Assembly: GCA_951406725.2 (NCBI GenBank)
Contig: OX597823.1
Coordinates: forward strand, 24,676,001-24,740,000
Length of the DNA: 64,000 nt
DNA from: Octopus vulgaris
Lineage: Eukaryota
Direction of reading: 5' to 3'
Under the pieces are notes generated by a model. It saw nothing but the letters and a program-made list of their open reading frames with translations. It was not told where the DNA came from and searched no databases. Below are positions 1,171 to 41,871 of the stretch, piece by piece (position 1 is the stretch's first letter; each line of letters opens with the position of its first letter). A program made the translations under genes and the position numbers.

Positions 1171-4100
1171 AAGAAAATACTTGTTACTTTTCTTAAACAT
1201 ATTATTATTATTTTTTTTTTTCTTCTTTCAAATTTGCTTCCATTTCTTGCCGAGTGTCTTCCCGACCCCTAGGGCAAAGAAACTCATAGTATACATTGGT
1301 AGGCCATTAAACCAAACTAAATGGTTCGTTCATTTTTTTTTTTTAAAGTTAAATTAAAATACATGAGCAGCAACAGTTCTCACATCGACAATGCTCTTCT
1401 CAATATGTGTGATGTACCAGTTAAGACAATCTTTTGCACTTCTTGCAGGGATGGTAAGCCAGGGATCATTCTCATATAATTTTCGGTTCCCTTCTTGATC
1501 ATTCCTAGTGCTCCTACGATCACTGGTATTGTAACCGCCTTGAGATGCCACATTTTCTCAATTTCAATGAGTAGGTCTTTATATTTTCTGAGCTTGTCAA
1601 ACTCTTTTGCTGAGATATTATGATCACAGGGATGCTCATGTCGATCAATATGCAAACTTTATTGTTTTGGTCTTTCACAACAATATCTGGTTTATTGGCC
1701 TTGATGGTTCAGTCTGTATGTACTGGAAAGTCCCACAGAATGGTTACACTTTCTCCTTCAGTTACAGCCTCAGGGTGGTGATTATACCACTTGTCGGCAG
1801 TTTTGATATTGTAATGCCGACTTATTAGCCAGTGGAGATATTGGCCAACTCTGTCATGTCTTAATTTATACTCCACTGGTGCTAAGACTTTACATCCAGA
1901 GATTAGGTGGTCCACTGTTTCAATCATGTCGTTGCAGAATCGGCATTTTGGGTCTGCTCCATTTTTCATCACATTGGCCTGGTAGTTCCGGGTTAATAGG
2001 CTTTGATCTTGAGCAGCCAGGATGAAACCTTCGCTCTCTGCTTTTAGCCCTGAGCTCCGTAGCCACTGATGGGTTTGCTTCTGGTCAACATCAGCTTGTT
2101 TGCTGCGGGTCACATATTTGCCGTGCAGAGGTTTCTCCTCCCACCTATCAGCCAATTGCTCGTGCGCTTTTTTCATTGCCATCATTTTCACCTTCTTTGC
2201 AACAATAGTTGCCGTACTTCCCTCGGGTTGTTCAGTTTGGGTATCCTGCACGAGATCAATAGCAAATTTTTTGCTTTCATTTATGATAGAATGAAGCTTC
2301 TTTCGTCTCTCGTGATTTTCCACGAGCTTTAGCATCCAGTCATTCGATATTTCGAGATATTTGGCCAGTCCAATTGTGGTTGTTTTGTAAGCTAGTTCAA
2401 ATTGGATCAGGCCTCGACCTCCTTGGGCTCTGGGAAGGTAAAGGCGATCTACGTCTGCCTTTGGGTGGTGCATCCTATTACAACTCAGCAGCTTGCGTAT
2501 TTTCCTATCTATATTCTTTACTTCACTCATATTCCAGTTCAACACATTGTAGCTATAAGTAACAACTGGAACTGCTAAGAAATTTATAGCTAACACCTTG
2601 TTACGTGCATTTAGTTCAGATTTCAGGACTGCACGAACTCTCCTATAACATTCCTTCCTGATCTTCTCTTTCATGCTTGCTTGCTGAATACCAGAGCCTT
2701 CATTTATCCCTAAATATTTGTATGTTTGTTCTTGCTCAAGCTCTCTTATGACTGTGTCAACATCTAACACGACTGAATTTGTGGTCTTCACTTTCCCTTT
2801 TTGGAAAGTGGCCTTGGCACACTTCTCAAGTCCAAACTCCATCCCGATGTCATTGCTGAATGCTTTCACGGTGCGCAATAGGCCTTCAAGTTCATTATTG
2901 TCTTTACCATAAAGTTTTAAGTCATCCATATAAAATAGATGGCTTATTTTTTTATTGGCAATTTTATACCCATATCCTGTTCTGTTTAATTCACTTGTAA
3001 GGGGTATTAGGGCTATGCAGAATATTAAAGGTGAAAGTGAGTCACCTTGAAAAATTCCACAGTTGATGTTTATATTTTCTGAGGCAAGTACTCCATTAGA
3101 GTGGTATAATTGGAGATTCGTATTCCACAACGACATATTGTGCATCAGGAAGTTTGAAATCACAGGGGAAATTTTGAAGATGTCCAGCGATCTCAAGATC
3201 CATGGATGCGGTATACTGTCGAAGGCCTTTTTATAGTCAATCCATGCGGTGCTGAGATTTCTGCGCTTGTTGTGACAGTTCTCAAGGATCCTACGATTGA
3301 TTAACAGTTGATCTTTGCATCCATAAGAGCCTCGGCGGCACCCTTTTTGTTCAATGGGGAAAATATCGTTCTTCTCCATGAATGCATATGTTTTCTCCGC
3401 CAGGATAGATGTTAGGATTTTATATGTGGTGGATAGACAGGTTATAGGCCGATAGTTTTTTGGAAGGTTGGTTTCGTTATTCTTTGGGAGTAGGTAAGTA
3501 ATGCCACTTGCTAACCATTCAGGTGTTTTCTTTGGGTCTCTCATAATTCCATTGAGCAGCTGAACTAGCTTACCGTGTGCGCACGGGAGCGATGCGAGCC
3601 AGAAATTCGGCACCCTATCTTTACCGGGGGATTTCCAATTATGGGTCTTCGTGAGTGCCTTTCTTAGGTCTGCTATTGTGATGTCTTCCCATGCTTGTTG
3701 TTGTAAATTTTGGTAGGATCCTTCAGTTTGTATAATCCAGTCTGCATTTATGTTGTACCTCTTCTTGTCACTCCAAATCCTTTTCCAAAAGTTTTGAACT
3801 TCTTCCATGGGAGGGGGGTCTTTAACGGTTACTTTCTCCTTCCCTATTTCACTGTAGAATTTTTTGGCATTGGATGTGAACAGCTTATTTTGCTTGTAAA
3901 ACTTGTTTCTCTTCTCAAATCTTCGTATTCTTTGGGCTTTTGCTTGGACTTTTTGTTTCAGCGTTTCTTTTATTGATATCAGTTCTTCTCTTGGTGAGAT
4001 CCAAATTTTCTCTTCATCTTTCTTCTTGTTCTGGATCTTACATCATTTCCACATATTAGTTCATTTAATATTGATATTTCCCCTCTCATAAATTCAATCT

Positions 4101-4326: not shown

Positions 4327-4801
4327 TAGTTTTATTTTTATTTTTATAGCGTGCTTTCACTTCACTACCGAGCGCAGCTCTGTGTGCCTTGGGTATGTGC
4401 TGTGATTTGTTGTGATGCTCTGATGGTTATTGTATGGAAAGTGTTCTGCGTAGGATGTGTGCAGTGCCTAGTAGTGCAATTTTCTGTATGTTATATGTGT
4501 TTGTAAGTCCTGGTGTTTTTGTTATGTATTTGTCTGAATATTTTTTTATCATGCCTAATGCACCTACTATGATAGGAATTGTTTCTGTTTTCAGATTCCA
4601 CATTCTAGTTACCTCTATTTCCAGGTCTTTGTATTTTGAGAGTTTCTCCATTTCTTTTAGAGACACGTTGTCATCTGCCGGTACTGATACATCAATTAGA
4701 AAGCATTTTTTTTCTTCATGATCTCTGACAACTATATCTGGTCTGTTGGCCTTAATTTCTCTATCTACTATATCTGGTCTGTTGGCCTTAATTTCTCTAT
4801 C

Positions 4802-4858
<57 letters not shown>

Positions 4859-5600
4859 ATAATAATAATAATAACAATATGGAAACTCACAGCTTATTTT
4901 GCTGGGTATGATGGAAAGTGTCAGCTGCTCACAGCCTGCAGACTAAGGTGATACTTGTTTACTGGTCATGCTTGAAGAACCCTGCAAAGAATTCTTGCAG
5001 TTCCAAGCAATACTGATTTTTGTAGGTGATCTTCTTTCACACTTGCACCAGTCTTTTTCAGCCATGTTAGTAGTTGAGTGCTGATACTTCCAAGTGCACC
5101 AATTATTATTGGTATCATGTCTGCTCTCTTCATTGACCACAATCTTTGTATTTCCATTATTATTACCTCTGCCTTAGTGAAGGCGGAGGTATTGTGTTCA
5201 ATTGTGTTTGTTTGTTTGTCCATGGACAAGATATCTCAAGAACCGCAGGGTGAATTCAGATGAAACTTTGTTTGACCTCACGACTGGCACAAACTGATTA
5301 GATTTTGGGATCAATCTGGTTCCAGACAAGGGTTCTGGATAATTTTTCCGGTTTTTTACTTAATTTTTGAGAGCAATCGGGTTCACTCAGCATATATACT
5401 CTTTCAAGTTTATGAACAGTGATAAGCCCACTTTTCTGTCCTGTTTTATCTGAAATCTTCAGGAACAGGAAAATGATGTATGCTCAAGCTTACTCAGAAT
5501 ACCCTGCTCTTTATTAACCAGAGCATGAACCTGTGGTCTCTGTCTTTTTAACTAAGCCATAGAAAAGAAAATTCTTACATATATGTCTACATATATATAC

Positions 5601-5681
<81 letters not shown>

Positions 5682-8226
5682 TAGTACCGCCTGATTGGCA
5701 CTCATGCCAGTAGAATGTTAAAAGCACATCTGAGCATAATCATCGTCAGGGCCATGAATTGCCTTCCGTTCCAGTGGCATGTAAAAAGCACCATTCAAGC
5801 ATGATCATTGCCAGCACCACCTTACCGGCACATGTGCTGGTGGCACGTGAAAAACAACATTCAAGCGCAATCGTTGCCAGTGCCACCGGACTGGCTTCCA
5901 TGCAGGTAGCACGTGAAAAACACCTTTTGAGTGTGGTTGTTGCCAGAACCGCCTGACTGGCCCTCGTGCCAGTGACATGTAAAAGCATCCACTACACTCT
6001 CTGAGTGGTTGATGTTAGGAAGGCCATCCAGCTATGGAAACTTTGCCAGATCAGATTGAGCCTGGTACAGCCTTCTGGCTCACAAGTCCTCAGTCAAACC
6101 ATCCAGTCCATAGAAAGCAGACGTTAAATGACAACGACGATGATGATATTTATTTATTCATGCACACATGTGTGTGTATGTATGTATGTGTGTGTTTGTG
6201 TGTACCTAAGTAATTTAGTATGTTTCTATGCATATTATATAGTTTGTTAGAAATTCCAGTAATGTTTTAGCCAAAAGTCAAACCTTTGTTCTTGAACTAA
6301 AAATTCCAAATACATACATACCTACGTACATACTTATGTATATGCACAAAAATATTTTCCTGTAATATGAACGAATCATATTGCCAAAAATATTTTGTTT
6401 TAACATTAACAACTCTTATTGCCAAAAATAAAACCACCAAGTTGGCAGAAACCTTAGGCCACTTACTTGCCTAAGCTTTATGTGCAAGCATCATACTGGC
6501 TGTCTCACCCAATCCTTCAGAATCATTGTGGATCCAATGACATAGTGACTGATGAGGGACCAGTTAGAGAAAAGATATTATGGGAAGGTAATAGATAACT
6601 TTTGAAAACAAAGCTGTTCTGTCCACAGGTCAGAAAGCACCACAGAATCTTTGTGATAATGTTGCCTGATTATAAGAAAAAAAAATACATTCAAATTTAT
6701 TCCCACTCATGGCTTCTGAAGTCTTTGCACTTGGCAAAAGTACATGCTACTTTGTTTGTTGCCGTTGAGAAGCTCACAAAGATCTGGGCAACTATCCTTA
6801 CACTTACAATCATCATCACCATCATCGTCCTTTTCATCATTTAAAACAAATTATGCAACAGATGCTATATAATATTTAATGTGTGTGAATATAAAATGCC
6901 TTTCTTGTTTTCTTTCATTTCTTCTTTATCTAGCTGATGATGATGTTTTAACATTTAAAAAAACTGCCATACCAGGGCATGATACATTTGATCAGATTGG
7001 AGGAATCAGTTTAAAGGAATGTGATCATGCTTGCCTTCAAATTCCAGGATGTAAATCTTATGAGTATCATGAAGCAAATAAATCCTGTATTCCATCTAAT
7101 GAGACTCTCCTGACTTATGACCTTAAACCCAACAAAGATGGATGGGATATATATATCATGAACCCAGGTCAGTGGAGTGTAATTCATTTAATTTTATGTG
7201 TGTTTGCATGCATGCGTCTACATATACCATATGTATTATATGTATGTTTATAATACACACACACCCACGCACACAGAGATACATATATACCTCAGTTCAA
7301 GGGAATACTCTAGCTTATGTAGATATGGCTTGTATATAACACTGAAAGGTAAAAATGATATACCAATAAAATTCATTAATCAATATATCACATTCACTTC
7401 ATTGTATATCAAAATTAATGGAGTAATTTTGTTAACATGACAAATGCTCCAGATTGAATAGCATTGTACATTGCACAATATGTTCTAAATGGAGGTGTAG
7501 TCAAATCCTATTTTATGGACTTAACCATGTTCTAAAATAAGTTGAAAGGTAAGCTACAATAAATCAGCATGAACTTTCTGGACAACCCAATGCAATGCAC
7601 TTAATGGAGAAATGCACTTCAGAACAGCACATATTTCTGAAGCAGAAAAATTCAAACTATAAGTGTAATTACATCATAAAATAATGATATAATATGCTTT
7701 ATCTTCAGGTATGACACCACTTAGATAAAATCAAATTCCACGTTGAGTATTGATGCAAATATTAAGTGTTTTATGAAATAACTACACTTATGATTTGAAT
7801 TTTTCTGCTTTGGTAATGTGCTGTATTTAACTGCATTTGTTCATTATTATTATTGATATGGCAGTTTGACCAAGGGAGCCCAACAGAGTAAGTAATTAGT
7901 TTAAAACTGGGTTCTGGGTTCAGTTTGTTACATGCATGTGTGTGTGTATGAGTGTCTGTGTATGAGCATATGTACACACACACACACATATATATATACA
8001 TTATCCAAAATTTAAAATAGTGGAACAGCTAATATGTAAGCTACATATGTTTCTTAAGAAGCTGAAGTTCATTACATAATTATTATGTACCAATGTCGTT
8101 ACTTATATAAATTGGAAAACATCACACTAGAGGTCCACTGCAATCTATCCTTAACATTTTTTAATAAGACTTTTATTACCTGAAAACACCCCATCTCATA
8201 TATATATATATATATATATGTATATG

Positions 8227-8973: not shown

Positions 8974-11900
8974 TTATAATTATATATATATATATATGTG
9001 TATATATATACACAATTATAGATGCCAGCCTTTCACATGTCATTTCTTACACCTGGAAAAAGCACTGAGAAATAGCAAGATTGGTTGAGTACAAAATTGA
9101 TAGTATATAATAATTATAATTATCAATATATCATATAGAAAAAGTGATGGAATTTCAGAATAGATTGCTTACATAAGTTGGATTTTCTCCACTTGAACAG
9201 AAAGTTTTCAAATTTTTTTACCATGCGCTTCAAATGAAGTAGAGTAGCCTTTTATGAAAAAAGAATTTGAAGATCTATGATTTTTTTCCCACCTACCCCT
9301 CCCCAGAGACAAACTTTTCAAATTATTTTTGCCCTCTTTACTTAAAAATGATGGGGGAAAAAATTTTTTTATTTCAATAAAATGTTGAAATCTTATGAAA
9401 ATCCTTGATTTTGTAATGTTGAAACACAACAGCAATGACCATTATAATTCTTGCTCTGCTCCTTTCTGTTTTTCAACACTAAATGAAATATGATTATTTT
9501 TCAAGTTTTCCATTCAACATGAACAGCAAAAAAAGAGGGAATTTATAAAAAATGTTGTTTACTCTGTATTTATGAATTTGCTTTTGTGTATGTGTGTGTT
9601 CATGTTGTCTGTGTATGTGTGTTTATACATTCCAGGTTTAATTTTGAAATAATTTTCACCATTGCAACTTTCATATCTAAATTGTTCTTCAGTTATTTAA
9701 ATAGAGAAGTAGGTAATGTTGCAGAAATATAGCCACATTGATTTGAAGCAGGCATTGAGTGGGGCGTCATTTTCAGGTCTGTCTCTAAAACAAAAGGAAA
9801 AAAATAGCAATGCAGAGCCAAGAATCATATTTAGATGTTTTGAAGCAAAGAATAAAGTCGAATGTGAGAACACGTATTTCAATCACAGGAAAAGTGAATT
9901 TTACATAGTGCTAAAAAGACAAAAAAAAAAGAAAATGAAAAAGAATCTGTCACAAGGGCCATGGGAAGGTGGGTAGAGGGAAAGGGAAAATCCTAGATTT
10001 TCAAAATTTTTTTTATAAAAGCTTCCCCCCATCATTTTCAAGTGCATGGTAACAAAAAATTTGAAAAATCCTAATCAAAACAGAGAAAATCCATCTTATG
10101 TGGGCAGCCTATTCTGAAACTCCACTGATTAATTACTCTTGATTTCTCTTCTCAGTCAAATCTAAAAACTTAATTTTCTCTTTCTTTTTGAATCTCACAC
10201 ACTCCCCCTCTCTGTCAGTTGATTTATGTGTGTACAAGGGAATATATCTGTAGAAAAATTATAGATATATACCCAAGCATACATATATACATTGTTCTCC
10301 ATATTTCATATAAAGGATAATCACTTGTAGATCTACACAATTTATACAACCTCTCCTTTTCTCTCCCATCTCTCTGTCCATGCATAGGTACAGTTATTCA
10401 TAGATCTGTACAATTTTCCACAACTTCTCTGTCTTCTCTATCACTTTATCTCTCTATCTCTCTCTATAAGAGGAAACGGCCAACAATCACACTGAGGATG
10501 TCTCAAAACTGGGGGAGCACAGAATTGGAATTGTTTATTAGAGGCTATCAAATATCTGAAAGAAACAACCCAAATAATATAATAGCAATAGCACTAAAGA
10601 GCAATGTCTACACAATGACCACAGCTCAGTTTGAGTGAAATGAACAAGAGCTCATCTGCTCCTGTGTTCTCATCAGACCTCGCATTGACTTCCTTGATGC
10701 TACCTTTGAAAACAAACACAAAAGTATGACAAGGATAGAGACACTGATGTGAGTGAAAGATGTTCCCTTGGTTCTACAGACCCCCTATGAGTGAGAGACT
10801 TGCCAGAGAAGGAGAGACAAGCACAAGAATAGCTTGCATAAGATGCAGTTTTGCTTTGTGCTATGTTTCTGGTAAAACAATTGCTGAAATATTTAGCTAG
10901 CAGTAAACCCTTGTATTTAGCATTGATCTTCTTAGAGAAGGATTGATCAGAGTCACATGCTCTGTAATTTTATAGTCACTAAGCAAGCTAAGAATAGATA
11001 AATGTCTTATGAGGGCCATACATTTTTCGATAGTGTGCATTCTCTAGAGTGAGAGTTAGTGATAGATCCCACAATGCATTTGCAGTAATATTGTTGATAC
11101 CAACGTTTGAGATACTCTACTGGGTTGCAGAGGAGAAGACCTGGGATGAGGTGGTGAAGTATTACCTTCAAACTGAGGCAATGACTACTGACTGAGACCT
11201 TTGGAAATATGCTCTGCATGAGAAGACCCAGCAAGCCAAGTGAAACCATAACCTGTGGCCTATGCCAGGGGTGTAACCAGCCCACTTATGCATACCTTTC
11301 CTTCATTGGACACTAAACTCTGCTTGCAAAGACTTGTTGAGGCAAGTGAAATCGAAATCAAATTCGATGACTGGCATCTGTGCTAGTGGAGTGCTAAGAG
11401 CACCATCCGAGCATGATCGTTGCTATATCAGCTGACTGGCTTCCGTGTTGGTGGTGCGTAAAAAGCACCATTCGAGCGTGATCATTACCAGCATTACCTT
11501 ACTGGCACTTGTGCCAGTGGCATGTGAAAAAACATTCAAGTGAGGTCATAGCCAGTGCCGCTGAACTGGCTCCTGTGCAGGTAGCACGTAAAAAACACCA
11601 TTTGAGCATGGCCATTGTCAGTACAGCCTGACTGGCCCTTGTGCCAGTGGCATGTAAAAGCACACACTACACTCTCGGAGTGGTTGGCGTTAGGAAGGGC
11701 ATCAAGCTGTACAAACTCTGCCAGATCAGATTGGATCCTGGTGCAACCATCTGGTTTGCCAGTCCTCAGTCAAATCATCCAACCCATGCTAGCATAGAAA
11801 GTGGACGTTAAATGATGATATGTAAATCCTGATAACAACTAGAAAGTTCCACAAAACAGTGATACTGACAGGCTCTGTACAACAAGGCAAGACTTTTCTT

Positions 11901-20900: not shown

Positions 20901-22378
20901 AGACAATCAGCGTCACCTAATCTCTTGGATGGTATATACTCCATCTTGAAATCATAGTTTAATGATATCATACCCCAACATTGCAACCTATTAGCAGTAT
21001 GGGTAGGGATTCCCTTCTTTGACCTACATTTTGATCATAATGGATGATGATTGATCTGTAGACGGAAACTTCTAGCATTTAAAAATCTATGAAAGATTTT
21101 CATGGCAAAAATAATCGCAGGAGCTTCTTTTTTGATTTGACTATAATTTTTCAATAAATCATCCATGAAGAGAAGATGGATGATTTAAAACTGTTTGCAA
21201 AAACAGAGACTCTCTCTGTTGGCTTTGTGCAGAACTACAGAAGTTGGGATCAAGGCCATAATGATTAGCAAAATTAAATGAAAATCTCCTCTTCTCATTC
21301 TTACCTCAGCTAAGTGCTGGTTGAAAACACATCTTTTCTGTAAAAAATGTGTTTTTCAACAAAGCATGCTGTTCTTGATTATTTCATGCTTGTCGAGTGT
21401 TTCCAGAGTCCATGTATGCAGCAGCATATCATAATCCTTTTTAAAACCCATCCAGGCCATGCAAAAATCTATTTGGTACCATTTGCAGTTCATCATTATG
21501 ATCTTGTCTATCAAATGGTGGTTCTCGGTGTCTTGGATCATTTCCAGCATACCTTTGCAGCTTAAATATTGGCACAACTTTTGCAAAGAATCTCAAGATT
21601 TTCTACAACTCTCTTAAATTTTGATTAGGGTAGCATTTTGTGGATCAATTCTTTGCTTATTACAAATTGTCCACTTACATGATTATGCATCTTATGCTTT
21701 TCAGTATTAAATATATTCTAGGAAGTACGTGTATGGTATGTGTGTGCATGCATGCATGTGTGTGTGTATTTGGATGAGTGGATGTGCATAAAATAAATGC
21801 CTTGTTTTCTATTTTGTTTCAGTCAATGAAGGGATTATTACGATGAAAACGATTGGCATACCAAGCAAGGCTACTTTAGCACAGCTGAACAATAAGACCT
21901 TAAAGGAATGTGAAAAGACTTGTCATAAATATATAGAATGTAACTCTTATCAGTACAATGCTGAAGATAAGTTGTGTGATCTGAGTAATGTGACTCAATT
22001 GAGTGATGAACTTAAGCCCACCAATGGAAACTGGGATATATACTTATCTAACCCAGGTCAGTAGAGTGTTTCTATTTCATTTATTTTGTGTGTGCCTTGT
22101 GTATATAAATATAAATGTATACTACATCACGCCTCTTTACCTCCTCCTCTTTATCAAAACTTTTTTATTCCTTCTTCTCCTTTGCTTAACAAACCCCACA
22201 AATTTTTTATATATAAAAAGGCCAAGAAATCTAACTTTAAACCACTTTTTGATAAATCCGATAATGGAAGAAAGTGTAAATTATATGTAAATAAAAAATA
22301 TATATAATCATCCAACATTCTGAGTACCTTATTATTCTAAATATTTGTGCATCATTTCAAAAACTCTCTCTCTCTCTT

Positions 22379-22417
<39 letters not shown>

Positions 22418-22674
22418 GCTTGAGAGGAAGATCCATCAAGCCAAGTAAAATCACATTCATGGCAGATACCAGTGTCACACAAATGGCACACATGCTGGTG
22501 GCACATAAAAGCTCCCATTACACACTCGGTGTGGTTAGTGTTAGGAAGGATATCCAGCTGTAGAAACAATGCCAAATCAGACTGGAGTCTGGTGCAGCCT
22601 TCCAGCGTGCCAGCTCTGGTCAAATCGTCCAATCCATGCCAGCATGAACAACAAACACTAAATGATGATGATGA

Positions 22675-22714
<40 letters not shown>

Positions 22715-23833
22715 TTAAATATGAGAGAGTTACCGCTGAGTGGTTAACTCTAGTGCTAAAAATAGCTCCTTTTTCTGGTATAACCACCAAAAGTTGTTTT
22801 CAATAAGAAATAACATTACATTCAACATAAGGAAAGTGAAATACAACGAAAAAAATAGATTAGGCCCGAACAATTGTTTCATTATTAATATAATATGCAA
22901 TTTTACTCACATATTTATCTATAAATCATCAGTGGAGGTTTGTCTTCGATACAATTTATTAGACCCTCATGAGCGTCAAATAACCATGCAGTTTAATCGA
23001 TTGCATTCATAGTTGTGATTCAGATTCCCCGCCAAAAGCATGGTAAGACTTAGTGGAAACGAATACTGCATATAATATTTACTGTAGCATCATTAAATTT
23101 ATAAATTTATAAATGAGGGTGAAAAATTAGATATTAATTTAATAATACCATCAGTTTAACACCAAGTGGCTTTTGGTGGCTATTCCAGAAAAAGGAGCTA
23201 TTTTTAGCACTAGAGTTAACCACTTAGCAGTAACTCTCTCATATTTAAGTATAAATTTGTATTGTCTCCCTGGTTTTTTATGTGCTAAGCCACTTGGTGT
23301 TAAACTGATGGTATTATTAAATCAATATCTAATTTTTCACCCTCATTTATAAATTGAATGATGCTGCAGTAAATATTGTATGCAGTATTCGTTTCCACTA
23401 AGTTTTACCATGCTTTTGACGGGGAATCTGAATCACAACTATGAATGCAATCGATTAAACCGCATGGGTATTTGACGTTCGTGAGGGTCTAATAAATTGT
23501 ATCGAAGACAAACCTCCACTGATGATTTATAGATAAATATGTGAGTAAAATTGCATATTATATTAATAATGAAACAATTGTTTGGGGTTAATCTATTTTT
23601 TCATTGTATTTCACTTTCCTTACGTTGAATGTAATGTTATTTGTTATTGGAAACAACTTTTGGTGGTTATACCAGAAAAAGGAGCTATTTTTAGCACTAG
23701 AGTTAACCACTCAGTGGTAACTCTCTCATATTTAAGTATAAATTTGTATTGTCTCCCTGGTTTTTTATGTGCTAAGCCACTTGGTGTTAAACTGATGGTA
23801 TTATTAAATTAATTTCTAATTTTTCACTCTCAT

Positions 23834-23868
<35 letters not shown>

Positions 23869-26800
23869 AACACAAGCATACATGTGCACACATGTGGATT
23901 GTGTTGTTTTATTCCATTTACAACTTGCATTTCTATTATGTTACAGTTGAAACAGACCAAAACTTTATCTTCTGTTGGATGCACATACAAATTAGCATAA
24001 AAAGACTAAGTAGATGATGTGAGCATACTTTTAGATGAAATTTGGGTTAATAAAGTGGTTAAGGTAGTCAGAGTGTGTTATAGGATACTTATGCGCAGAT
24101 TAGTTTTGCAAAGCAGTACAGCAACTGTACTACTTTGTTGTAGGAGAGAAGTGGGTTCAAATGGATGATGATACACTTGCACTTAGTGATTCTACAAAAT
24201 GGAAGTGCCACTAGGAAAGGCTGCAATATGTGGAGAATGCATGGGAGAAGGAAAGTCTTCCTAATTACTTTTGCCTATGCTCGTTACACGAGACTTCCAG
24301 ATGAAAAGAAATATCCACTTCATGACACTCTTTTGCAGACAACCTCAATAACAAATGACAGTGACCTTTTCTTTGGTGCTGGTAACTTCAATGGGCATGT
24401 TGAGCAGCATTTGGGTAACTTCCATACTGTGCAGAGAAGCTATTGAGTTGTTCCTGAAATGAGGAATCTACTGGACCTCTGTAATGAAAATGACCTTATG
24501 ATCTGCAACACAAACTTGTGGAAATGAGCCAGTCACCTGTTCACCTATCCACCTGGTGGCCATTCTATCCACATTGACTACTTTCTCACAAGAAAGTGGG
24601 TTAGATGATTGTTCATAAATGCAAAGATCTTACCAGGTGAAGAGTGCACTCCTCAATCTAGGTTGGTCATAAGTGACTCTAGATTGTGGGCCAGAATTAT
24701 TCCAAGAAGTAAACTTGTCTGAAAATGGAATAGTTAGAAGTTTAAGGACCATTTGAAATGTCAAAGATTTGGAGATGTTGTCATTGAAGCAGTTAACGGA
24801 AGGTTGGGGAGATTGACCTGTAACATAGAGGATTTCCATGATGAAGAGAGATGTTGCTCATCTGCTGTCAGTCAGCTAACTGGTTAAATCGCATGCTTCT
24901 CTTCTTGGGCAGAGAACTGCTTTTGGTATTAATACATGCCCACCCCTGATTGGCTGGAGTATACCATAGCACAACTGTGCTATGATGTGACAACTAAAAT
25001 AGCTTTTCTGACATGCTACAGATCCATAAACAAACAATTGAAGAGAGTAGAGAACAAACTGACTCCATTCTCTTCTTTAGAGCTAAACTAACTGGTTACA
25101 AGGGAGGTAATTTTATCAAAGTAGTTATTTGTAGAAACTAGGTTATTTGTCTTAAGTATGTATTTAGCTAGCTAGAGAGGTGGGTGGGAGGGGCTTACAG
25201 AGAAATGAACATTAACTTTCTTCATATTTGACCAAGAAAGAATTGAAATACCAATTCTTAAAATTGAAGTTTAAGGATCATTTGAAAAGTCAAAGATTTG
25301 GATATGTTCTAACTGTGGAGCATTTGACAAGAAGCATGTGGAGATAGTAACATATTATAGGAAGGATGACTGGAAGTTCCTGTGGGACAACTTATTGAGT
25401 GTCACAGACCAAATTTGTGGTTGGTGCAAGGTCCCAGTCAGGTTTAGGTGACAAGGTGGTAGAACAGTCCAGTAGACAGAGACATAAAAGTGAAGAAACC
25501 AGCCTTGAAGGACTGGAAGAGTGACTCTAGCAGAGAACTATGCCAGGTTGCCACAAGAAAAGCTAGGTAATTGGTATCTTTAGCTAGGGGAAAAGCAGAA
25601 ATGAAGAAGATTGCCAATGTTTTGTGGTATGAAGACCAACGACATGAGGTGTTCTGGAATACAAGACTGTGCCAAAGAAATTCTTGATGTTGCAGGAGAG
25701 GAGTATGTTCAGATGGATGATGGTATGCTTGAATTTAGTGATTCTACAAAAAAGAGGCATGGAAATGCCATATCATAGGCTGCTAAATGGGGAGAATGCT
25801 TGGGAGAAGTAGTCTTCACAGGAACTAGCTATCCAAATTGACAGTAATATAATAGATAAAGCAATTAAGGAGATGAAGACAGAAAGACCCTGGCCCATTA
25901 TGAATTACTGCCAAGATGTTAAAAATATCTAGCAGGGTGGTATGTAGTCGAGTTGCCTGTATAGTTAATCAGGTTTTCCATACCCAACAGGGTCATGCCC
26001 AACGATGTGGCAGCATCATAGTCAACTACTACAAATAGAAGTAATTACATAGATATCAAATTGCTGGACCAACTAATTAGGAAGAGAGTTAATGTAGATG
26101 AGATGCAGTTTGGTTTTGTACCAGAGAAAAGCACTTCTGGTGCTATCTTCGTAGCAACTGAAGGAGAAACTTTTAGTCAAAATAAACTTACATACTTGGC
26201 ACAGTCAATATGAGAAAGCCTTTGAAACTGGTTACTGATGACCTTCTTCTTATAGCTGAATCTCTAATAGATGTAGAGAAGTAATTTCAAGTGTGAAAAC
26301 AAGGACTTCAATCAAACGGACTGAGTTAATTTAGCAGAGACCAAAGTACTAGTAAGCAAGAAAGCAGACAGAATACTAATCCCTTTAGAGAGATAACCCT
26401 GCTGAATATGTAGAAAAGGTGTTCATAGAAATTCCATATGCTATATTAAGTGCCAGCTATGGATTGCAAGCTCTGGATGCATTGGAGATGCAGTGAAATT
26501 ACAGGAAGGTTAACAGGGAATACAGATTTTGTGTGTGGCTAATGTGCAGGCACAATGAACACTAAGAATGTACACGAAATAGACCTCCTCCAACGTCCAA
26601 GGGAATCTTTAGAGACAGTAGATAGTTTTCATTAGCTTAGTGAGCAAATTAGTAGTGGAGGAGGTTGCTCTGAAAACATGGAAGCTGGAATAAGAACCAG
26701 CTGGGCAAATTTCAGGGAGCTGTTACCTTTGTTGTTAACAGGACACTTCTTGTTACAAGAGTGCAAGATTGGTACATGATGCCTGTGTATGGATAGCTAT

Positions 26801-29800
26801 GCTACATGGCAATGAAACATGCCATGTAGCATAACTATGACTACAGATGACATACGAGGGCAAAATAAATGAAGCCAGCATGCTCTGCCACATGTGCAAT
26901 GTCAATGCACATATAGCATATGTCTTAAGAGAAGAACAAGGTTTAAAAGAGATCAGATATAATGTGTAAGAAAGAAGGCTGCGCTACTATGGTCATGTGA
27001 TGCATATGGCTAAGAACAGCTGCATAAAGAAGTACTGATTTCTAATTGTAGAGGAAACTTGTGGAAGAGGAAGACCCAGGAAGTTGTGAAAGTGTGGGAC
27101 AAAGTGGTGAGAAACAATGTTCTGATGTTGAAGAGATGACAAAGGACTGAGACATCTCAACATCCAAGACATCTGAAACATCGAAGATAACAGCAGTTGT
27201 GCATTTAACTGTACACATGAGTTATACTCTGTGTGTGTGTGTGTGCATAAATCAGGATTTATGAAGCATGTATACTGAACACCCTCCTCTATGGATCAGA
27301 GACTTGGACGCTATACACAAGACAAGAGAAGCTCAATGTCTTTCATCTGAGATGCCTATGCAAGTTCCTTGACATCACCTCTTAAGACAAAGTAAGCAAC
27401 ACAGAAGTCTTGAAACAGGCAGCATTTTCAAGCATGACAGCTATTCTGTGCAAAAGGAGACTAAGATGGCTTGAACTTGTGAAGCAGATGGATAACAAGA
27501 GAAAGGGAGGGAGGGAGGGATGTGTGTTTGTGTGTGTAGAAAAGGCAAAAGAAGAGAGGGATTTTTATACATTTTTTTCCAGCTAGCTAACAGATATTTC
27601 CAATAAAGTTGAAGAATCATAGTTCCCTAGTACAATAATCATATTTATAATGAAAAAGGAGATTAAAGAACCTGATAAAATACTTTACAAGAGTTTTCTG
27701 TGAAGTAAAATAAACCTAGCTAACGAAATTGTTCTCTGATGGATGTAACAATCCTGGTAATATATATTTTAACAAATCCTGGCCAGTCTAACTTGTAAAT
27801 CCAAAGTTTAGTCCCTCAGAAAAATTAGTGTGTAAGTATAGAGCATTATAGAAAAGGCATAAAAGCAATGGTAATGGATATGTACATAATTTATTCCAGC
27901 TAGCTTACACGTGTTTCTGATAAGACTGGATTTCAATTCTCTAATATAATAATCACACTTATTAATCACTCCATAATCAAACAATTGAAGAGTGTAGAGA
28001 ACAGACTGATTTCATTTCTTTTCTTCAGAGCTAAACTAACTGGTTGCAAGGGAGGAAATTTTTATCAAGTTATTAGCAGTAGGAACTAAGCCATTTGTCT
28101 TTATGTAATTAGCCAGCTAGAGGGAAGTAGGGAGGCTTACACTGGAAAAAGCATTAACGTTCTTCATATCTAACCAAGAAAGAATTGAAATACCAATTAC
28201 TATCAAATGCTTACTATCAAACTTTCACCCTCCTCCTGACATATATTGACCATTGATATTAATTTCTATTATCACTTCCAGTTATTACAAAAGTTAACTG
28301 CGGACCTCCAAAAGACATTGTTGGTACAAAGAAATCCTACACTAACACCACCTATAAATCTGAAGTGACCTACACATGTCCAGGAGGACAACAGTTGAAG
28401 TCAAAATGTAAAAATGACAATAAATGGACTCCAGTTGCATCCAGTTGCAAAGGTAATGTAAATAGGTTCTCTTCTGTTGTCTCTGTCTAGGTATTTTTGT
28501 TTAATTTTTTTTATTAAATATCTTTGTCAGATGAAGAATAACTGAATCCATGACAATTTCCATGGTATCTGTGGCTGGTTGAAGGGAGAGAGAAAACTAT
28601 TCTCAGAGAAGATAATGTCCTAACCTAAATCCATGCAACAGAGTGAACTTAATTAAAGCTACCCAAGATTCAGTTAATGGTATTAATTGTATTAATTTGG
28701 GTAATGGATTAAATCTGCCAAACAAGAGCAGCAAGTGAGGAAGTGTGTTGTCTCCAGCAGGCTTCTGCATAGTTTCCATCCACCAAATTTCATTCAGAAT
28801 ACTTAGTCTAGAAGCTGATTTTTAATCATGCAGTCATAAGCTATAAGTTCAGACAATACCACATTCTTGTTAAGTAAACCTCAGCTAACCTAGCAAATTT
28901 TTCTCTAAAATTCTAACTTCAGCTCTCTCACTCATACTTTGTTTCATCCTCTGAAACCCTGTGCAATACAATGCACTGAGTGTTTCTTTACAAGAATTCA
29001 GCAATCATCCAAAACTTCTGGTGCTCTAATGGTCTTTCATTCCACCATCCTAAATTACACTGAGACAAATAGTAATGGTTTCTGGTTTGGAAAAAAAAAT
29101 CAAACACATTTCAATAGAAAGGGTTTAGTCAATATCATGACCGTCAATACTTGATTGATATTTTATGTTATTGATCACCTACAAGAATAAAAGATAAAGT
29201 TAATATTGGCTGGATTTGAACTGAAAACATGAATAGATACCATAAATCATTTCTTTCAGTTTTCTATTTCATATTCATGTATACATTTAAAATAAAGATG
29301 AGAATGATGATGCAATTCTCTTGAATGTTGAAGGATCTTTATCTAAAACTAATTGGTGAACCCCTCCATCAAAGATCACCATGAATTCCAAGGACAAGTG
29401 TGCTCTCTAATTAATATTCTTTGAGATACAGCTTTATGCACTATGGAACCCATCCACTTTCATGTCACTTTCAGAATTTTCCCTACAGGAGAATATCTTC
29501 ATCCTCATCTTCTTTACAAGTGAAACTTTAAAAATATAGATTGGAGATTGACCAAAGGGAAGTCCCAATTGCCAGATCTTTCAACCCATCCATCACGCAA
29601 CCGCTTTTGTTATAACTAGCAGACAGAGGAAAAGGAACTTTTCTGCTCAGTTAAAGGAGGCTGTGGGGCAATCATAATGATGGGCTAGAATTGCAACCAT
29701 ATCATCTGTTGTGCACACAATAGCAGCAGTTTGACATAAAACTACCTGTGACAAATGCCTGGACATGAAATGAGTGCATGGAACAGCTCTCGTGGATAGC

Positions 29801-35544: not shown

Positions 35545-38270
35545 AGGCACATTGAAATGTAGGTCTAACAAGATTGTAGAGATGCTTGAACGGAGGTGTG
35601 TTGATGTATGTTGCATCCAAAAGGTAAGGTGGAGAGGAGCTTCAGCCAGGTTCCTCACAGGTAAGACACATAGGTATAAAATCTTCTGGTAAGGTAACGG
35701 TGATGGAGTAGGTGGTGTGGGCATACTTCTTGCAGAGAAATGGGTGGATGAGGTCATAGAGATAGTCAAAGTGTGCGATAGAGTGCTTAAGCTCAGGCCA
35801 GTCTTGCAGAATAGTATAGCTACAATTATATCTACCTATGACTCACAAGCCAGCCAACCAAATGAACAGAAGTACTACTTTTATGATATTCTTTTGCAGG
35901 CTACCTCAAAGTCGAGTGACAATGATCACATTTTTGTGGCTGGGAATTTTGATAGGCACGTCGAACAGCAGCCTGGTATCTTCCATGGTGTTCATGGGGG
36001 ACATGGAATTGGTTTCCAAAAGAAAGAGAGTACAAAGCTACTGAAGTTCTGTAATGCAAATGACCTACTGATCTGCAACACCAACTTAAGGAAGCCAACC
36101 AGCCACCTGATAACCTATCAATCAGGTGACTCTGCTAGCCAGATCGATTTTATTCTCACCAGACAGCAGGATGCACGGTTGCTCTTAAATACAAAGACCC
36201 TCCCTACTGAAGAATGTACCTTCCAGCATAAACTAGTCATTAGCGACTTTAGATTCCAGACCAGAAGGATGCCAAGAAGCACACCAATCTGGAAAAGAAA
36301 GATTTGGAAGCTTAAGGGCCCTTCATATGCTCAGAGATTTAGGGACATCCTAATTGAGAAATTTGATGAGAGGGAGGAGGAGCTACAAACTTGAGACACA
36401 GAGGGCAACTAGGAATTCATGCAAGACCACTTGCTGAGTGCTACAGACCAAATCTGTGACTGGTGCAAAGTCCCTTCCAGACCTAGGGTAACATAGTGGT
36501 AGAACAATACTGTAGATAGGGCCATTAGAGCAAAGAAACAGGCCTGGAAGAGTGAGGGAAGCAGGTAACTGTATCAGATAGCCAGAAGGGAAACTAGGAG
36601 ACAGGTATATCTAGCCTGGAGAGAAGCAGAAAAGAAGTTTGCCTATGTTCAGTGTCATGAGGACCAAAGAACTGAATTATTTCAGATTGCAAGACAGTAT
36701 GTGAGAGAAGATTGTGATGTCATAGGAGAGAAATGTGTCTGCATGGATGAGGGTGCTCTTGCTTTTAATGATTCTGCAAAGAAAGAGGCTTTGACATTTC
36801 ATTATGAAAGACTACTGAACGTGGAAAATGAATGGGAGGAGGAGAGTTTGCCAGACTTTGACCCAGATGAGGAACCAGCTACCCAAATCAACAGAGAAAG
36901 CCTCTAGCCCATCGGGAATCATTGCTGAGATACTTGAAATATCTGGCAGTGTGGGTTATGGTCTAGTCACCCATATTGTTAATTAAGTGGTTCATGAAGG
37001 TGTCATACCCAATGACTAGTGTAGCAGCACCATAGCCAACTGCTACAAAGGTAAATGAGATGCCTTAGATAGAAATAATTACAGAGGTATCAAATTGTTG
37101 TTTCAGGGGATGAAAATTATGGAGAGAGTCGTAGCTCAACTAATTAGAGAGAGAGTTAGTCTAGATGAGATGCAGTTTGGTTTTGTGCCAGGAAGAAGCA
37201 CCACTGATGCTATATTTCTGGTAAGGCAACTACAGGAGAAATACCTAACCAAAGATAAACCTCTGTACTGGCTTTTGCTGATTTGGAGAAAGCTTTTGAC
37301 AGCATTCCTCGATCCCTTATCTGATGGTCAATGCAGAAACTAAGGATAGATGAGTGGTTGGTGAGAACTGTACAGGGACACTACCAGTAAGGTGAGGGGG
37401 AGTAACGGGTGCAGTGAAGAGTTCAGGGTACAAGGAGGGGTTCACCAAGGATCAGTACACAGCCCCCTCTTGTTCATCATAGTCCTTTAGGCAATAACAG
37501 AGTAATTCAAGACAGGCTGCCCCTGGGAACTCTTCTATACTGATGACCTTGCTCTTATAGCTGAACTAGAGAAGTTCCAGGCATCGAAGCAAGGTCTAGA
37601 ATCAAAGGACCTTAGAGTTAACCTAGCAAAAACCAAAGTTGTAGTAAGTAGGAAGGCAGATAAACCACAAATCCCTTCAGGTAGATAGGCCTGCTCAATC
37701 TGTAGAAAAGGTGTAGGTAGAAACTCCATAAGATGCACCCAGTGTAAGTTTTGGATGCAAGAAATCTTGAAATAAACTGAATAATGACATTACATGTGTG
37801 TGTGTATAATAGGTATTGGGATGCAAACACTATAAGTGCTAACACAAAACTCTCAGATCTTGAGCCACTCTGTTGCTTCTGCTAAATATATATATATTAT
37901 GTGTACACAAACATACACACACATATTAGTCAGAGCATGTCTGTGTTACTAAGAAGTTTGCAACCCAACAACATAGTTTTAGCTTTATTGTTATACTGTG
38001 CAGCATCAGTAAACAATGCCCTCCAGAGAACTTGCTACAAAGGCAAAATCGCATATATAGAATTCACACCAAAAACACAATATTGCGACAAACACAACAC
38101 CAAAGAAACATAACTTAGTTCATATTTCCATACAAATAAATGTACCTATCCCTAAAGGGAAAATCTTTATCCTGCTTAGAAAGCACTTTCTCCCAAATTT
38201 CAAATATTATACAATCTTCACGAAAGACTTCAAAATGAAGAAACCACTGCTTGAGGTGTATGTATATATG

Positions 38271-38346: not shown

Positions 38347-41300
38347 TGCATATGTATGCCTGAATATGAACCTGTTGTTACGTAAATGTCTCTCTCTTTC
38401 TCTTTCTATGTAAGTCTCATCATCATTTAATATGCATTGTCCATTCTGGCAAGGGCTGAACAGTGCAACCAGAGCTGGCAAACTGGAAACTGCACCAAAC
38501 CACAATCTGATTTGGCATGATTTCTATGGCTGGATGCCCTTCCTAACACTAATCACTTTACAGAGTGTGTTGGACACTTTTATGTGTCCCCAGACGGATG
38601 TTTTTATGTGACATTGCACAGGTGCTTTTAAGTGATGCCACACTGGCGCTTTGATATGATGCTGCATGGGTGGTTTTACATGGCATCACACAGGTGATTT
38701 TATGTGGAACCACCACAAGTGCTTTAAACTACCAGAAGGATCAGTCTTGACAATTCTGCTGTGGAGTATGGCAAGGTACCAGGTATCTCACTCCTTTGTC
38801 AACTCATCTGAAAGGTTCACCAGCCTGAGGTCATTCTTTAGTACTTCATCCCATATCTTCCTGTGTCTCCCACTTCCACATGTTCCATCTACTTTGAGAG
38901 ATTGGCACCTCTGTATGGAGCTGTCGGCATCCATCTGCATCACGTGACCAAACCAGCAGTCTTCTCTGTTGCACACAGCAACCAATTCCTCTTATGCCTA
39001 ACCTGTCTCTCAGGACCATAGCACTCTGTCAAACATGTACACTTACCTTATATATATATCCGAGTTAACAGTTCCTTAGTAGTTAAGGCAATTACAAGCA
39101 TGAAAACAGGGAAAGCCCCAGGCCCATCAGGAATTACTGCAGAGATGCTCAAAATATCTGGTAGTGTCGGCTATGGCATAGTCACCTGTATAGTTAACCA
39201 GGTGATACACGAAGGAGTCATACCCAATGACTGGTGTAGCAGCATAATAGTCAACTGCTACAAAGGTAAAGGTGACGCCCTAGATACAAATAACTACAGG
39301 GGCATCAAGCTGCTGGATCAGGTAATGAAGGTTAAGGAGAGGGTTATAGCCCAATTAATTAGAGAGAGAGTTAGCTTAGATGAGATGCAGTTTGGGTTCG
39401 TGCCAGGGAAAAGTACTACTGATGCTATATTCCTGGTAAGACAGCTGCAGGAGAAATACCTAGCCAAAGAAAAGCCCCTGTACCTGGCTTTTGTTGACAT
39501 GGAGAAAGCCTTTGACAGGGTCCCCCGATCCCTTATCTGGTGGTCAATGAGGAAACTAGGGATAGATGAATGGTTAGTGAGAGCTGTGCAAGCCATGTAC
39601 AGGAATGCCGTCAGTAAGGTGAGGGCTGGCAACGAGTACAGTGAAGAATTCAGGGTAGAGGTAGGGGTCCACCAAGGTTCAGTCCTCAGCCCTCTCCTAT
39701 TTATCATAGTCCTCCAGGCAATAACAGAGGAATTCAAGACAGGATGCCCCTGGAAGCTCCTCTATGCTGATGACCTTGCTCTAATTGCTGAGTCACTATC
39801 AGAACTGGAGGAGAAGTTTCAGGTGTGGAAACAACGATTAGAATCGAAGGGCCTTAGAATCAACCTAGCCAAAACCAAAGTCCTAATAAGTAGGAAGGTG
39901 GACCAATCACAAACGACTTCAGGTAGATGGCCCTGCTCAATCTGTAAAAAAGGTGTAGGTAGAAACTCTATAAGATGCACCAAGTGGAAGCTATGGACAC
40001 ATAAGAGGTGCAGCAATGTCAAAGGAAGGCTAACTAGGAAAATAGTTTTTGTCTGTGGCAGATGCTCACAAGCAATAAACACTGGAAATGTGCAGAGACC
40101 AACTTCTACCACGTTCCAGGGAGACAAACTAGAAGTAGTTGATAGCTTCCGCTACCTAGGTGACCAAGTCAGTAGCGGGGGTGGGTGTGCTGAAAGTGTA
40201 ACTGCTAGAGTAAGAATAGCCTGGGCAAAGTTTAGAGAGCTCTTACCCCTGCTGGTGACAAAAGGCCTCTCGCTCAGAGTAAAAGGCAGACTGTATGATG
40301 CATGTATACATACAGCCATGCTACATGGTAGTGAAACATGGGCCGTGACTGCTGAGGATATGTGTAAGCTCGCAAGAAATGAAGCCAGTATGCTCCGATG
40401 GATGTGTAATGTCAGTGTTCATAATCGACAGAGTGTAAGTACCTTGAGAGAAAAGTTGGACCTAAGAAGCATCAGTTGTGGTGTGCAAGAGAGACGTCTG
40501 CGCTGGTATGGTCATGTGACGAGAATGGCTGAAGATAGTTGTGTACAAAAGTGCTACACCCTAGCAGTTGAGGGAACCTGTGGAAGAGGTAGACCCAGGA
40601 AAACCTGGGACGAGGTGGTGAAGCACGACCTTCGAACTTTAGGTCTCACCAAGCAAATATAACTAGAGACCGAGACCTATGGAAGTATGCTGTACGTGAG
40701 AAGACCCGGCAAGACTAATGAGGCCATAACCCGTGGCCTCTACCTGGTATATAGCCACTCGACTTATACATACCTTTCCTTCTTGGGACACAAAACTCCA
40801 CTTGTGAAGACCCGTTGAGGCAAGTGAAAATCAAAAAATCAAAATCAAAATCAAATCAGATATCAGAAAGCAGAACCAAAATCGAAGTCGATCAACATCA
40901 ATGGAAATTGCGGCTGTGATACCAGTGCCGGTGACAAGTAAGCGAACCATCCGATTGTGGCCGTTGCCAGTGCCTCCCCGACTGGACTCCGTGCCTTCAT
41001 GTCCGTTGCCAGCCTCACCTGGCCCCCGTGCCGGTGGCACATAAAAGCACCACCCGTTCGTGGCCGTTGCCAGCCTCGCCTGACCTCCGTGCCGGTGGCA
41101 CGTAAAAAGCTCCATCCGTTCGTGGCCGTTGCCAGTGCCGCCCCGACTGGCCTCCATGCCGGTGGCACATAAAAGCACCATCCGTTCGTGTCTGTTGCCA
41201 GCCTCGCCTGGCCCCCGTGCCGATGGCACGTAAAAGCACCATCCGTTCGTGGCCGTTTGCCAGCACCGTCTGGCACCTGTGCGGGTGGCACGTAAAAAGC

Positions 41301-41449
41301 ACCCACTACACTCGCGGAGTGGTTGGCGTTAGGAAGGGCATCCAGCCATAGAAACACTGCCAGATCAGACTGGGCCTGATGCAGCCTTCAGGCTTCACAG
41401 ACCCTAGTTGAACCGTCCAACCCATGCTAACATGGAAAACGGACGCTAA

Positions 41450-41484
<35 letters not shown>

Positions 41485-41871
41485 ATATATACATATACTA
41501 TATATATATATATCATATATCAATATCTATAAATCTGAAATGCGAAAAGTTTGTTTGTCTGATTTTGGCATTGGAACGGGTTAAAGGGCACTAGATCCCG
41601 TTAGATTCGCTCCAAAATTGACAGGGACATGTAAAATGAATTGAGGATGTTAGTGTGCTAGGTTAGAAATCCCTATCTTAAAAGGTGTTGTTACTAGGGC
41701 AAAAAACGCACACCGCCTTCGCCAGCGCTGTCACTCTTTCTTCCACTGCCTCCCTCCCCACTTCTCTCTCTCTCTACGTCTGTCTGCATTCATAGAGAGT
41801 TTTATTATCGCCACCACCGACACACAATCATGAGAACAAATATTATGAATCAGATATTTATTGGGTTAATC

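Follow-up and report, generated by a model that had tools for sequence, protein, structure and literature searches.

What kind of element is a compact non-coding foldback in a predicted intron of an octopus-type gene, and could the hammerhead-ribozyme-like motif that it carries act on the transcript of that gene? The question arises from a 64-kb stretch of DNA (64,000 nucleotides, hereafter the window, to which all positions refer), in which an initial annotation, drawn from the letters of the sequence, had pointed to tandem and inverted copies of a unit with a hammerhead motif and had proposed an origin from Penelope-like elements (PLEs) or retrozymes. Here, the anatomy of the element and its surroundings, the motif, its predicted folding, the coding capacity and the ends of the element are considered in turn, before the possible origins are weighed and compared with known systems.

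Host gene and insertion site

The window carries a plus-strand gene with at least 16 PAN and Sushi exons in repeating order between 600 and 63490 (Pfam; tblastn exon map), the kin of which are uncharacterised Octopus bimaculoides proteins of 709-1730 aa. For the exon adjoining the element, all four protein relatives found come from O. bimaculoides, with a top identity of 73%, hence the host is taken to be an octopus or a close relative. The element appears to lie within an intron running from 22057 to about 28281, as suggested by GT/AG signals and by the lack of any exon-like tblastn match between 22100 and 28200. All 120 tblastn matches of the O. bimaculoides relative in the window are on the plus strand, which places the better of the two hammerhead copies (see below) on the sense strand of the host gene, as had been claimed for it. 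The element sits in a (TA)n tract behind an older, dispersed repeat with an (ATG)n tail, for which six further matches of 49-243 bp (71-84% identity) exist in the window; the copy at 41271-41512 likewise terminates in (ATG)n, followed by TA-rich sequence. An empty site was sought in the intron following the paralogous exon 53711-53971, which contains no copy of the element, and the two introns do not align past the exon.

Several other repeats were observed. A 61-bp tandem array (40996-41303, 4.9 copies) is found shortly upstream of one copy of the dispersed repeat flanking the element, and 66-bp tandems resembling this array are found at 5774-5922 and 11497-11663. The intron that holds the element also contains a direct repeat of 236 bp with 82% identity (25023-25256 and 27970-28198) and a decayed retroelement (24136-27082), within which lies an imperfect palindrome of 46 bp (26793-26838). 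The decayed retroelement is about 65-70% identical to reverse transcriptase (RT) elements at 39022-40662 and 35693-37343 (both plus strand), which comprise an RT frame of 546 codons with endonuclease-like pieces and which we take to be of RTE type. On the minus strand, an open frame of 777 codons (1709-4042; RVT_1, E 4.6e-30; weak zf-RVT match) and additional open pieces at 1380-1658 and 4427-4942 make up a fairly intact intronic non-LTR retrotransposon.

Anatomy of the element

The element combines a direct part with an inverted arm (Table 1). The direct part (23170-23838) measures 669 bp, or 1.37 copies of a 487-bp unit with a G+C content of 31% (measured on the permuted unit 23170-23656), and its first 182 bp repeat as 23657-23838 at a period of 487 with 8 substitutions in 182 columns, forming the partial tandem of a pseudo-LTR. 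Adjacent to it, head to head, stands the inverted, 5'-truncated copy, which differs from 23287-23740 by 18 substitutions over 463 columns, one 8-nt and one 1-nt indel, and the 3' end of which (in the sense of the hammerhead) points outward and terminates in TATA. The foldback is the strongest inverted repeat in the window, and no further copy of the element was found elsewhere in it. The one-sided extension past the inverted-arm match is 98 nt, against 30-40 for the usual Penelope-like tail. At each end, the outer four nucleotides (TATA) are common to the element and the microsatellite, so that the bounds 22711 and 23838 of the initial annotation are right, and its description of some 1.4 direct copies of a unit of roughly 490 bp, preceded by an inverted copy of about 460 bp inside (TA)n, agrees with the repeat structure found. 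In the direct copy, the unit junction is a 10-bp palindrome, and the inverted arm has, at about 23095-23115, an 8-nt duplication exactly at this junction, which could stem from slippage or from a target duplication.

Table 1. Features of the element and its immediate surroundings (window coordinates; a point marks features without strand).
Feature	Position	Strand	Basis
Upstream host exon, PAN/Apple domain	21823..22056	+	Pfam PAN_1, E 5.6e-9; AG/GT boundaries
Older dispersed SINE-like repeat ending in (ATG)n, outside the element	22484..22677	+	Matches in the window
Left (TA)n target tract	22677..22713	.	TRF, 18.5 copies
Inverted arm, 0.95 unit	22710..23172	-	Reverse complement of 23287-23740; about 96% identical
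Second hammerhead-like motif, predicted cut after 22869	22862..22941	-	Sequence; fold z-score -0.08
Head-to-head junction, 3-nt microhomology CTT common to both arms	23170..23172	.	Sequence
Upstream partial copy, 5'-truncated, pseudo-LTR-like, 182 bp	23170..23351	+	Direct repeat
114-nt foldback loop	23173..23286	+	Within upstream partial copy
One complete 487-bp unit, no ORF relic detected	23352..23838	+	Repeat alignment
Type I hammerhead-like motif	23510..23589	+	Sequence, descriptor, folding
One-sided 98-nt tail past the end of the inverted-arm match, between two likely priming sites	23741..23838	+	Sequence
Right (TA)n target tract, then (CA)n	23835..23858	.	Sequence

The hammerhead motif

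In the plus copy the core elements follow in the order CUGANGA, GAAA, UH, with CTGATGA at 23519-23525, GAAA at 23571-23574, CAATTG at 23575-23580 and T, T at 23581-23582, and cleavage is predicted after 23582, with GUU as the triplet. Three helices can pair, namely stem I (23511-23518 with 23583-23589, forming 5 bp without a gap or 7 bp if one U is bulged out), a long AU-rich hairpin as helix II (23526-23570, 45 nt between the core halves) and a helix III of 2 bp with a tetraloop, within the palindrome ACAAUUGU. The motif positions, the pairable stems I and II and the cut site given by the initial annotation all match. However, its likening of the motif to minimal type I hammerheads stands only in part: the motif is of type I with a palindromic helix III, but it is not loop-less, it has U·U instead of G10.1-C11.1, and its helix II is long. 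The U·U, a non-standard pair, occupies the first positions of helix II (10.1 and 11.1 in hammerhead numbering) in both copies; neither this pair nor the 45-nt distance between the core halves figures in the initial annotation.

The second copy of the motif (core 22932-22926) is on the minus strand, 587 bp away, so that the element has two motifs on opposite strands and one per strand. It is identical to the plus copy from the core to the cut site, but three differences just past the cut site break its stem I, making the plus copy the better one. At 23583, the closing base of stem I, the arms differ as CpG and TpG, and as CpG decay is common in the element, C may be ancestral there, in which case the closing A-U pair of the plus copy would be accidental. 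The other two differences in this 6-nt cluster likewise favour pairing in the plus copy, which suggests that the plus copy may be the one nearer to the ancestor. Across the motif (23482 to 23582), the arms are identical over 101 nt, a length that does not reach significance (longest run, P 0.07; with matched composition, 0.12).

How readily such a motif arises by chance was gauged by shuffling. Among 20,000 unit shuffles, 280 contained the bare core, 20 had a palindromic helix III in addition to it and none showed the complete hammerhead anatomy, and a literature-based descriptor matched none of 100,000 unit shuffles, both descriptors having been set after the motif had been seen; with a spacer limited to 30 nt, the literature-based descriptor misses the motif. 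The same descriptor also matches 50178-50209 on the plus strand, with no matches in 200 shuffles of the window. This candidate for a second hammerhead was rejected as chance, as it falls within a coding exon for PAN and the descriptor matches none of its four paralogous exons. Since such a false match occurs despite zero matches in the window shuffles, the shuffle figures overstate significance; chance is an unlikely source of the motif, although the true P value is less extreme than these zeros would imply. An Rfam search, proposed by the initial annotation as a check, returned no hammerhead for the whole window at the gathering score or for 22600-23950 and 23495-23610 at E up to 10; its only returns were microsatellite-driven miRNA matches and weak snoRNA matches.

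Predicted folding and predicted masking by the inverted arm

Taken by itself, helix II has a folding energy of -7.6 kcal/mol, which 18 of 2,000 shuffles reached, and the fold z-score is -2.09 for 91 nt and -0.60 for 111 nt; for a circular 487-nt monomer it is -2.15 (as stable in 3 of 100 shuffles). Closure of helix III in the monomer is slightly unfavourable (-14.0 kcal/mol, against -14.7 when open), and two molecules can form an 8-bp duplex through the palindrome at -6.4 kcal/mol. As there is one motif per strand, no dimer can form in cis. When the hammerhead fold is forced, the penalty relative to the minimum is 3.2 kcal/mol for the unit by itself and 110.7 kcal/mol for the whole element, and 79 of the 80 motif bases are paired with the inverted arm in the predicted fold, also for a transcript ending at 23600. 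Folding thus predicts that the ribozyme is sequestered at this locus, and because the inverted arm would pair with the motif, the latter is predicted to be inert here, which is in line with the earlier suggestion that the arm could pair with it and silence it.

Coding capacity

The sole frame of at least 90 codons inside the element is a start-less one of 90 aa (22740-23012), for which a word search of protein sequences gave no homologue candidate. No relevant Pfam match to a telomerase-like RT or a GIY-YIG domain was obtained in any of the six frames of the direct part, and a sub-threshold match to Alpha_E3_glycop (E 0.042; 14.4 bits against a cut-off of 25) was rejected as an ORF relic. The sequence-database searches covered two of the three plus-strand frames of the whole element: one frame had no match at E 0.001 among 1.84 billion representatives (phmmer), and the second, compared with short proteins, gave 47 candidates, none of them at E up to 1. 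A 79-aa frame compared with the ESM Atlas reached a best score of 0.75, which is uninformative, and two by-eye likenesses to the C-terminal motifs of PLE endonucleases were dropped for want of support in the protein searches. A 22-nt scan of bacterial and archaeal genomes hit one locus, in a Campylobacteraceae MAG, by a match of 23 nt only, which is put down to chance. By Pfam in the six frames of the direct part, and by database searches with two of the three whole-element frames, no coding relic was found, in keeping with the earlier statement that there is no ORF; a linked GIY-YIG or RT ORF, the search for which had been advised, was not found inside the element by Pfam or the protein searches either. 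The element itself is not an autonomous PLE. However, the unit has only 167 nt upstream of the hammerhead core, a length that is similar by eye to that of the non-coding 3' ends in the Hydra-clade consensus sequences inspected, so that a truncated autonomous element would likewise show no ORF, and the non-autonomous parent proposed by the initial annotation does not follow from the lack of one.

Ends, priming and age

On its sense strand the unit contains TATA four times and TATAAATT twice, at 23250 and 23348, each TATAAATT site lying 6-12 nt after one of the only two CTCAT of the unit. Both outer ends of the element fall on these only two TATAAATT sites. Given ends at TATA, hitting these two of the four sites by chance has a probability of about 1 in 8, and the placement is modest evidence for priming from (TA)n. 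Read in the sense of the motif, the element has a 3' end on either side, which is what target-primed reverse transcription demands; this geometry, by needing both outer ends as RNA 3' ends, picks the motif-carrying strand. For a Penelope element of anole, RT has been found to start at two internal sites, the stretch between them becoming the genomic tail, with the enzyme reported to start without homology to the target and with the ribozyme dispensable for insertion in vitro (PMC11167929); self-priming has been discussed for rotifer Penelopes (PMC3846280). By analogy with the anole element, two start sites may have been used here, with (TA)n pairing to UAUA. The template sequence beyond both priming sites reads AATT, which favours a continuous tandem or circular template. 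The 8-nt duplication where the units join, taken with the geometry of snap-back, speaks for assembly in the course of insertion.

In two segments that are present three times, the differences are private to single copies; at one CpG, two copies have decayed in opposite directions, and 6 of the 18 arm differences are of CpG type. The pattern is consistent with a single insertion that then decayed neutrally, by about 2% in each arm. With the repeat clock of O. vulgaris, in which a distance of 0.09 equals 25 million years (PMC13282606), the insertion would be roughly 5-6 million years old, a figure that depends on this borrowed rate.

Origin of the element

The element is best read, with a fair margin of doubt, as a Penelope-type retroinsertion, likely from a short non-coding RNA bearing a hammerhead-shaped motif, in which the motif is predicted to be inert by way of the inverted arm. 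The PLE pattern consists of a partial tandem, an adjacent 5' inverted truncated copy and a one-sided tail (PMC8557442; PMC3846280), and the architecture of the element matches it except in the length of its one-sided extension. The Penelope-like origin put forward at the outset thus gains support from the tandem with its 5'-adjacent inverted copy, the one-sided, if unusually long, extension, the (TA)n and the opposite-strand motifs about 590 bp apart.

In the proposed course, the GIY-YIG endonuclease of an autonomous PLE, most plausibly of the (TA)n-targeting Hydra clade, would nick the microsatellite, and the free (TA)n end would prime reverse transcription at UAUA, 256 nt downstream of the ribozyme cut site. 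Synthesis would proceed for 669 nt along a tandem or circular 487-nt template, and the inverted arm would arise either because the other UAUA, located 158 nt downstream of that cut, served as a further priming site, or by snap-back of the cDNA, the arms being joined through the 3-nt microhomology. Cleavage by the hammerhead in the parent RNA would be weak, most efficient in dimers formed via the ACAAUUGU palindrome, and would yield a unit-length linear or circular RNA. Since its insertion, the copy would have decayed by about 2% in each arm. Transcription of the host gene would produce the inverted arm first, and this arm would form a duplex of roughly 450 bp in the pre-mRNA, leaving the host message uncut and offering a plausible substrate for A-to-I editing.

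The alternative closest to this reading, which we consider rather unlikely, does without a separate non-autonomous family and sees in the element the 3' non-coding end of an autonomous PLE, truncated twice: 487 nt would have been copied, the RT would have jumped back to the 3' end and copied another 182 nt, and snap-back of the cDNA would have given the inverted arm. PLE insertions are mostly 5'-truncated (PMC8557442; preprint 10.64898/2026.07.22.740005), and the 167 nt before the core are similar, by eye, to the length from stop codon to hammerhead in the Hydra-clade consensus inspected. The unit junction would be the element's own 3' end, with the 8-nt duplication sitting exactly there like a target duplication, and the start of the inverted arm 114 nt from the 5' end of the direct part, with 3 nt of microhomology, is what snap-back predicts. 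However, two extra events are required, the AATT beyond both priming sites suggests a natural continuous sequence over the unit junction rather than an arbitrary join, and PLE termini commonly give rise to short tandem units with a hammerhead (preprint 10.64898/2026.07.22.740005). A foldback or MITE-like DNA element, or an inverted duplication made by repair at a fragile (TA)n, with a hammerhead shape by accident, would account for the 454-bp inverted arms with their 114-nt spacer, the TA at the left end and the microhomology at the junction, and would sit well with the lack of an Rfam match, the chance descriptor match in the window and a stem I closing pair that may be recent. It is nonetheless improbable, as the 98 nt after the right arm repeat the spacer directly, which a terminal-inverted-repeat element leaves unexplained, three copies are present with no source elsewhere in the window, and the odd features of the motif have counterparts in natural hammerheads of PLEs and retrozymes, its strand and its distance from the ends being those that retroposition predicts. 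A DIRS-like reading was also tried and rejected: the internal segment repeats the right extension directly, not in the complement that a DIRS structure would call for.

Two further readings give the motif a role in the host. The hammerhead might cut the pre-mRNA or intron, or the duplex might be a retained signal for editing or small RNAs, with editing able to free the ribozyme. A-to-I editing is extensive in cephalopods, and the sense strand carries the better motif, across which the two arms do not differ; but this identical run is not significant, sequestration of 79 of the 80 bases is predicted even in the transcript ending at 23600, the single motif per strand leaves no dimer in cis while helix III closure in the monomer is unfavourable, and the matching intron after the paralogous exon 53711-53971 is devoid of a copy, so that host function is very improbable. 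Finally, the motif, being sense, intronic, about 80 nt long, closed by a terminal stem and endowed with a UGAUGA box, might be taken for an intronic box C/D snoRNA, and three C/D snoRNAs are among the weak Rfam matches (E 1.1-4.3). However, the sole CTGA in 23510-23590 is at 23519, so that there is no box D, the scores are 17-20 bits against gathering scores of 43-55, and the motif is inside a recent repeat, which together leave this reading with next to no probability.

If the Penelope-type retroinsertion is accepted, it may, more tentatively, represent an undescribed cephalopod retrozyme family, with 487-nt circular RNAs, a U·U hammerhead, a helix II of about 17 bp and two CUCAU...UAUA priming signals, mobilised in trans by a Hydra-clade Penelope into (TA)n; this proposal is a possible one that may well fail. 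Such a family, if real, would directly test start-site choice and the formation of inverted arms by PLEs, and ends at a repeated TATA-containing signal are a natural read-out of PLE priming. A bolder extension of this proposal, much less likely and hardly to be expected, would have the ribozyme, released through A-to-I editing of the 450-bp duplex, cut the intron of the host gene. As Rfam and spacer-limited descriptors miss a motif with a long helix II and U·U, octopus elements of this kind are probably under-counted.

Comparison with Penelope-like elements and retrozymes

Hammerhead-bearing Penelope derivatives are common in animals, hence the class is not new, and hammerheads have already been reported in cephalopods, with 235 Rfam hammerhead loci in the giant squid (PMC6962438) and one motif in Hydra-1_Obim, a Hydra-clade family from Octopus bimaculoides (PMC8557442). 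For O. vulgaris, 31 recently active Penelope-like families have been described, in passages that do not mention ribozymes (PMC13282606), and no paper on an octopus retrozyme was found in literature listings from which subscription journals are largely absent.

Animal non-LTR retrozymes, for which a PLE origin has been proposed, share with the element a non-coding tandem unit that is rich in AT, measures a few hundred bp and contains a single type I hammerhead (PMC7229834; preprint 10.64898/2026.07.22.740005), and the 31% G+C of the octopus unit lies below the limit of 45-50% that is set for them. However, the unit of 487 bp is longer than the 170-400 nt of the RNAs studied, while falling within the preprint's range of 51-972 bp, and the element has a PLE-style inverted arm and 1.37 units with one sense hammerhead, whereas the preprint asks for two hammerheads in an active retrozyme. 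In the same preprint, 8 of 9 predicted Xenopus retrozymes tested did not cleave.

The minimal hammerheads of PLEs, described by Cervera and de la Peña (2014) in opposite-strand pairs 100-700 bp apart (PMC4209133) and treated as dimers in PMC6765202, have the same CUGANGA and GAAA core, palindromic helix III and opposite-strand arrangement. In contrast, the element is without the G10.1-C11.1 pair, called 'highly conserved' in most PLE hammerheads, and its helix II far exceeds their 7-8 bp (PMC4209133). Closer likenesses are found in the Hydra clade, for which the hammerhead table of Craig et al. (2021) has 26 rows, or 25 families by our count after one duplicate row was dropped (PMC8557442). 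Of these 25 families, 14 have a U following the first core half and another preceding GAAA, which makes the U·U of helix II, and 10 have U as the cut-site base; a (TA)n insertion is listed for 26 of 27 Hydra families; an attached inverted copy is given for one family (PMC8557442). The element thus shares with Hydra-clade PLEs the (TA)n, a type I hammerhead near the 3' end, the U·U, a short self-complementary helix III and a cut-site U that is frequent among them, but differs in its helix II region (45 nt, against 12-26), in its helix III palindrome (8 nt, against 9-10) and in having no RT/GIY-YIG ORF. The (TA)n target is common to Naiads as well, including the octopus Naiads Naiad_Ovul, Naiad_Obim and Naiad_Omin, and is hence not diagnostic of the Hydra clade, and the element is left without an assignment to any clade. 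Naiads are without canonical hammerheads; Naiad_Ovul is listed with a 'half core', in a class with halves 35-50 nt apart (PMC8557442), and by eye its nearest GAAA is 5' of CTGATGA. Hydra-1_Obim is without U·U (PMC8557442), and its 3' end has no visible similarity to the unit. Compared by eye and by exact words, the 3' ends of all four octopus consensus sequences (Hydra-1_Obim, Naiad_Obim, Naiad_Ovul and Naiad_Omin) look unrelated to the unit, and nine short unit words gave no match to cephalopod elements in the Craig supplement, seven being absent from it and two having single matches in other entries.

Experimental precedent is provided by the axolotl hammerhead HHR_Amex2, which combines U·U with a 2-bp helix III and a tetraloop, and of which 22% was cleaved in 1 h as a monomer, with better cleavage as a dimer (PMC7229834). 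Together with the 14 of 25 Hydra-clade families, this cleaving ribozyme indicates that U·U is a natural variant, one that is not exclusive to a single clade. The octopus motif appears closest to the Hydra-clade and axolotl Amex2 hammerheads, and its remaining oddity is the 45-nt helix II region.
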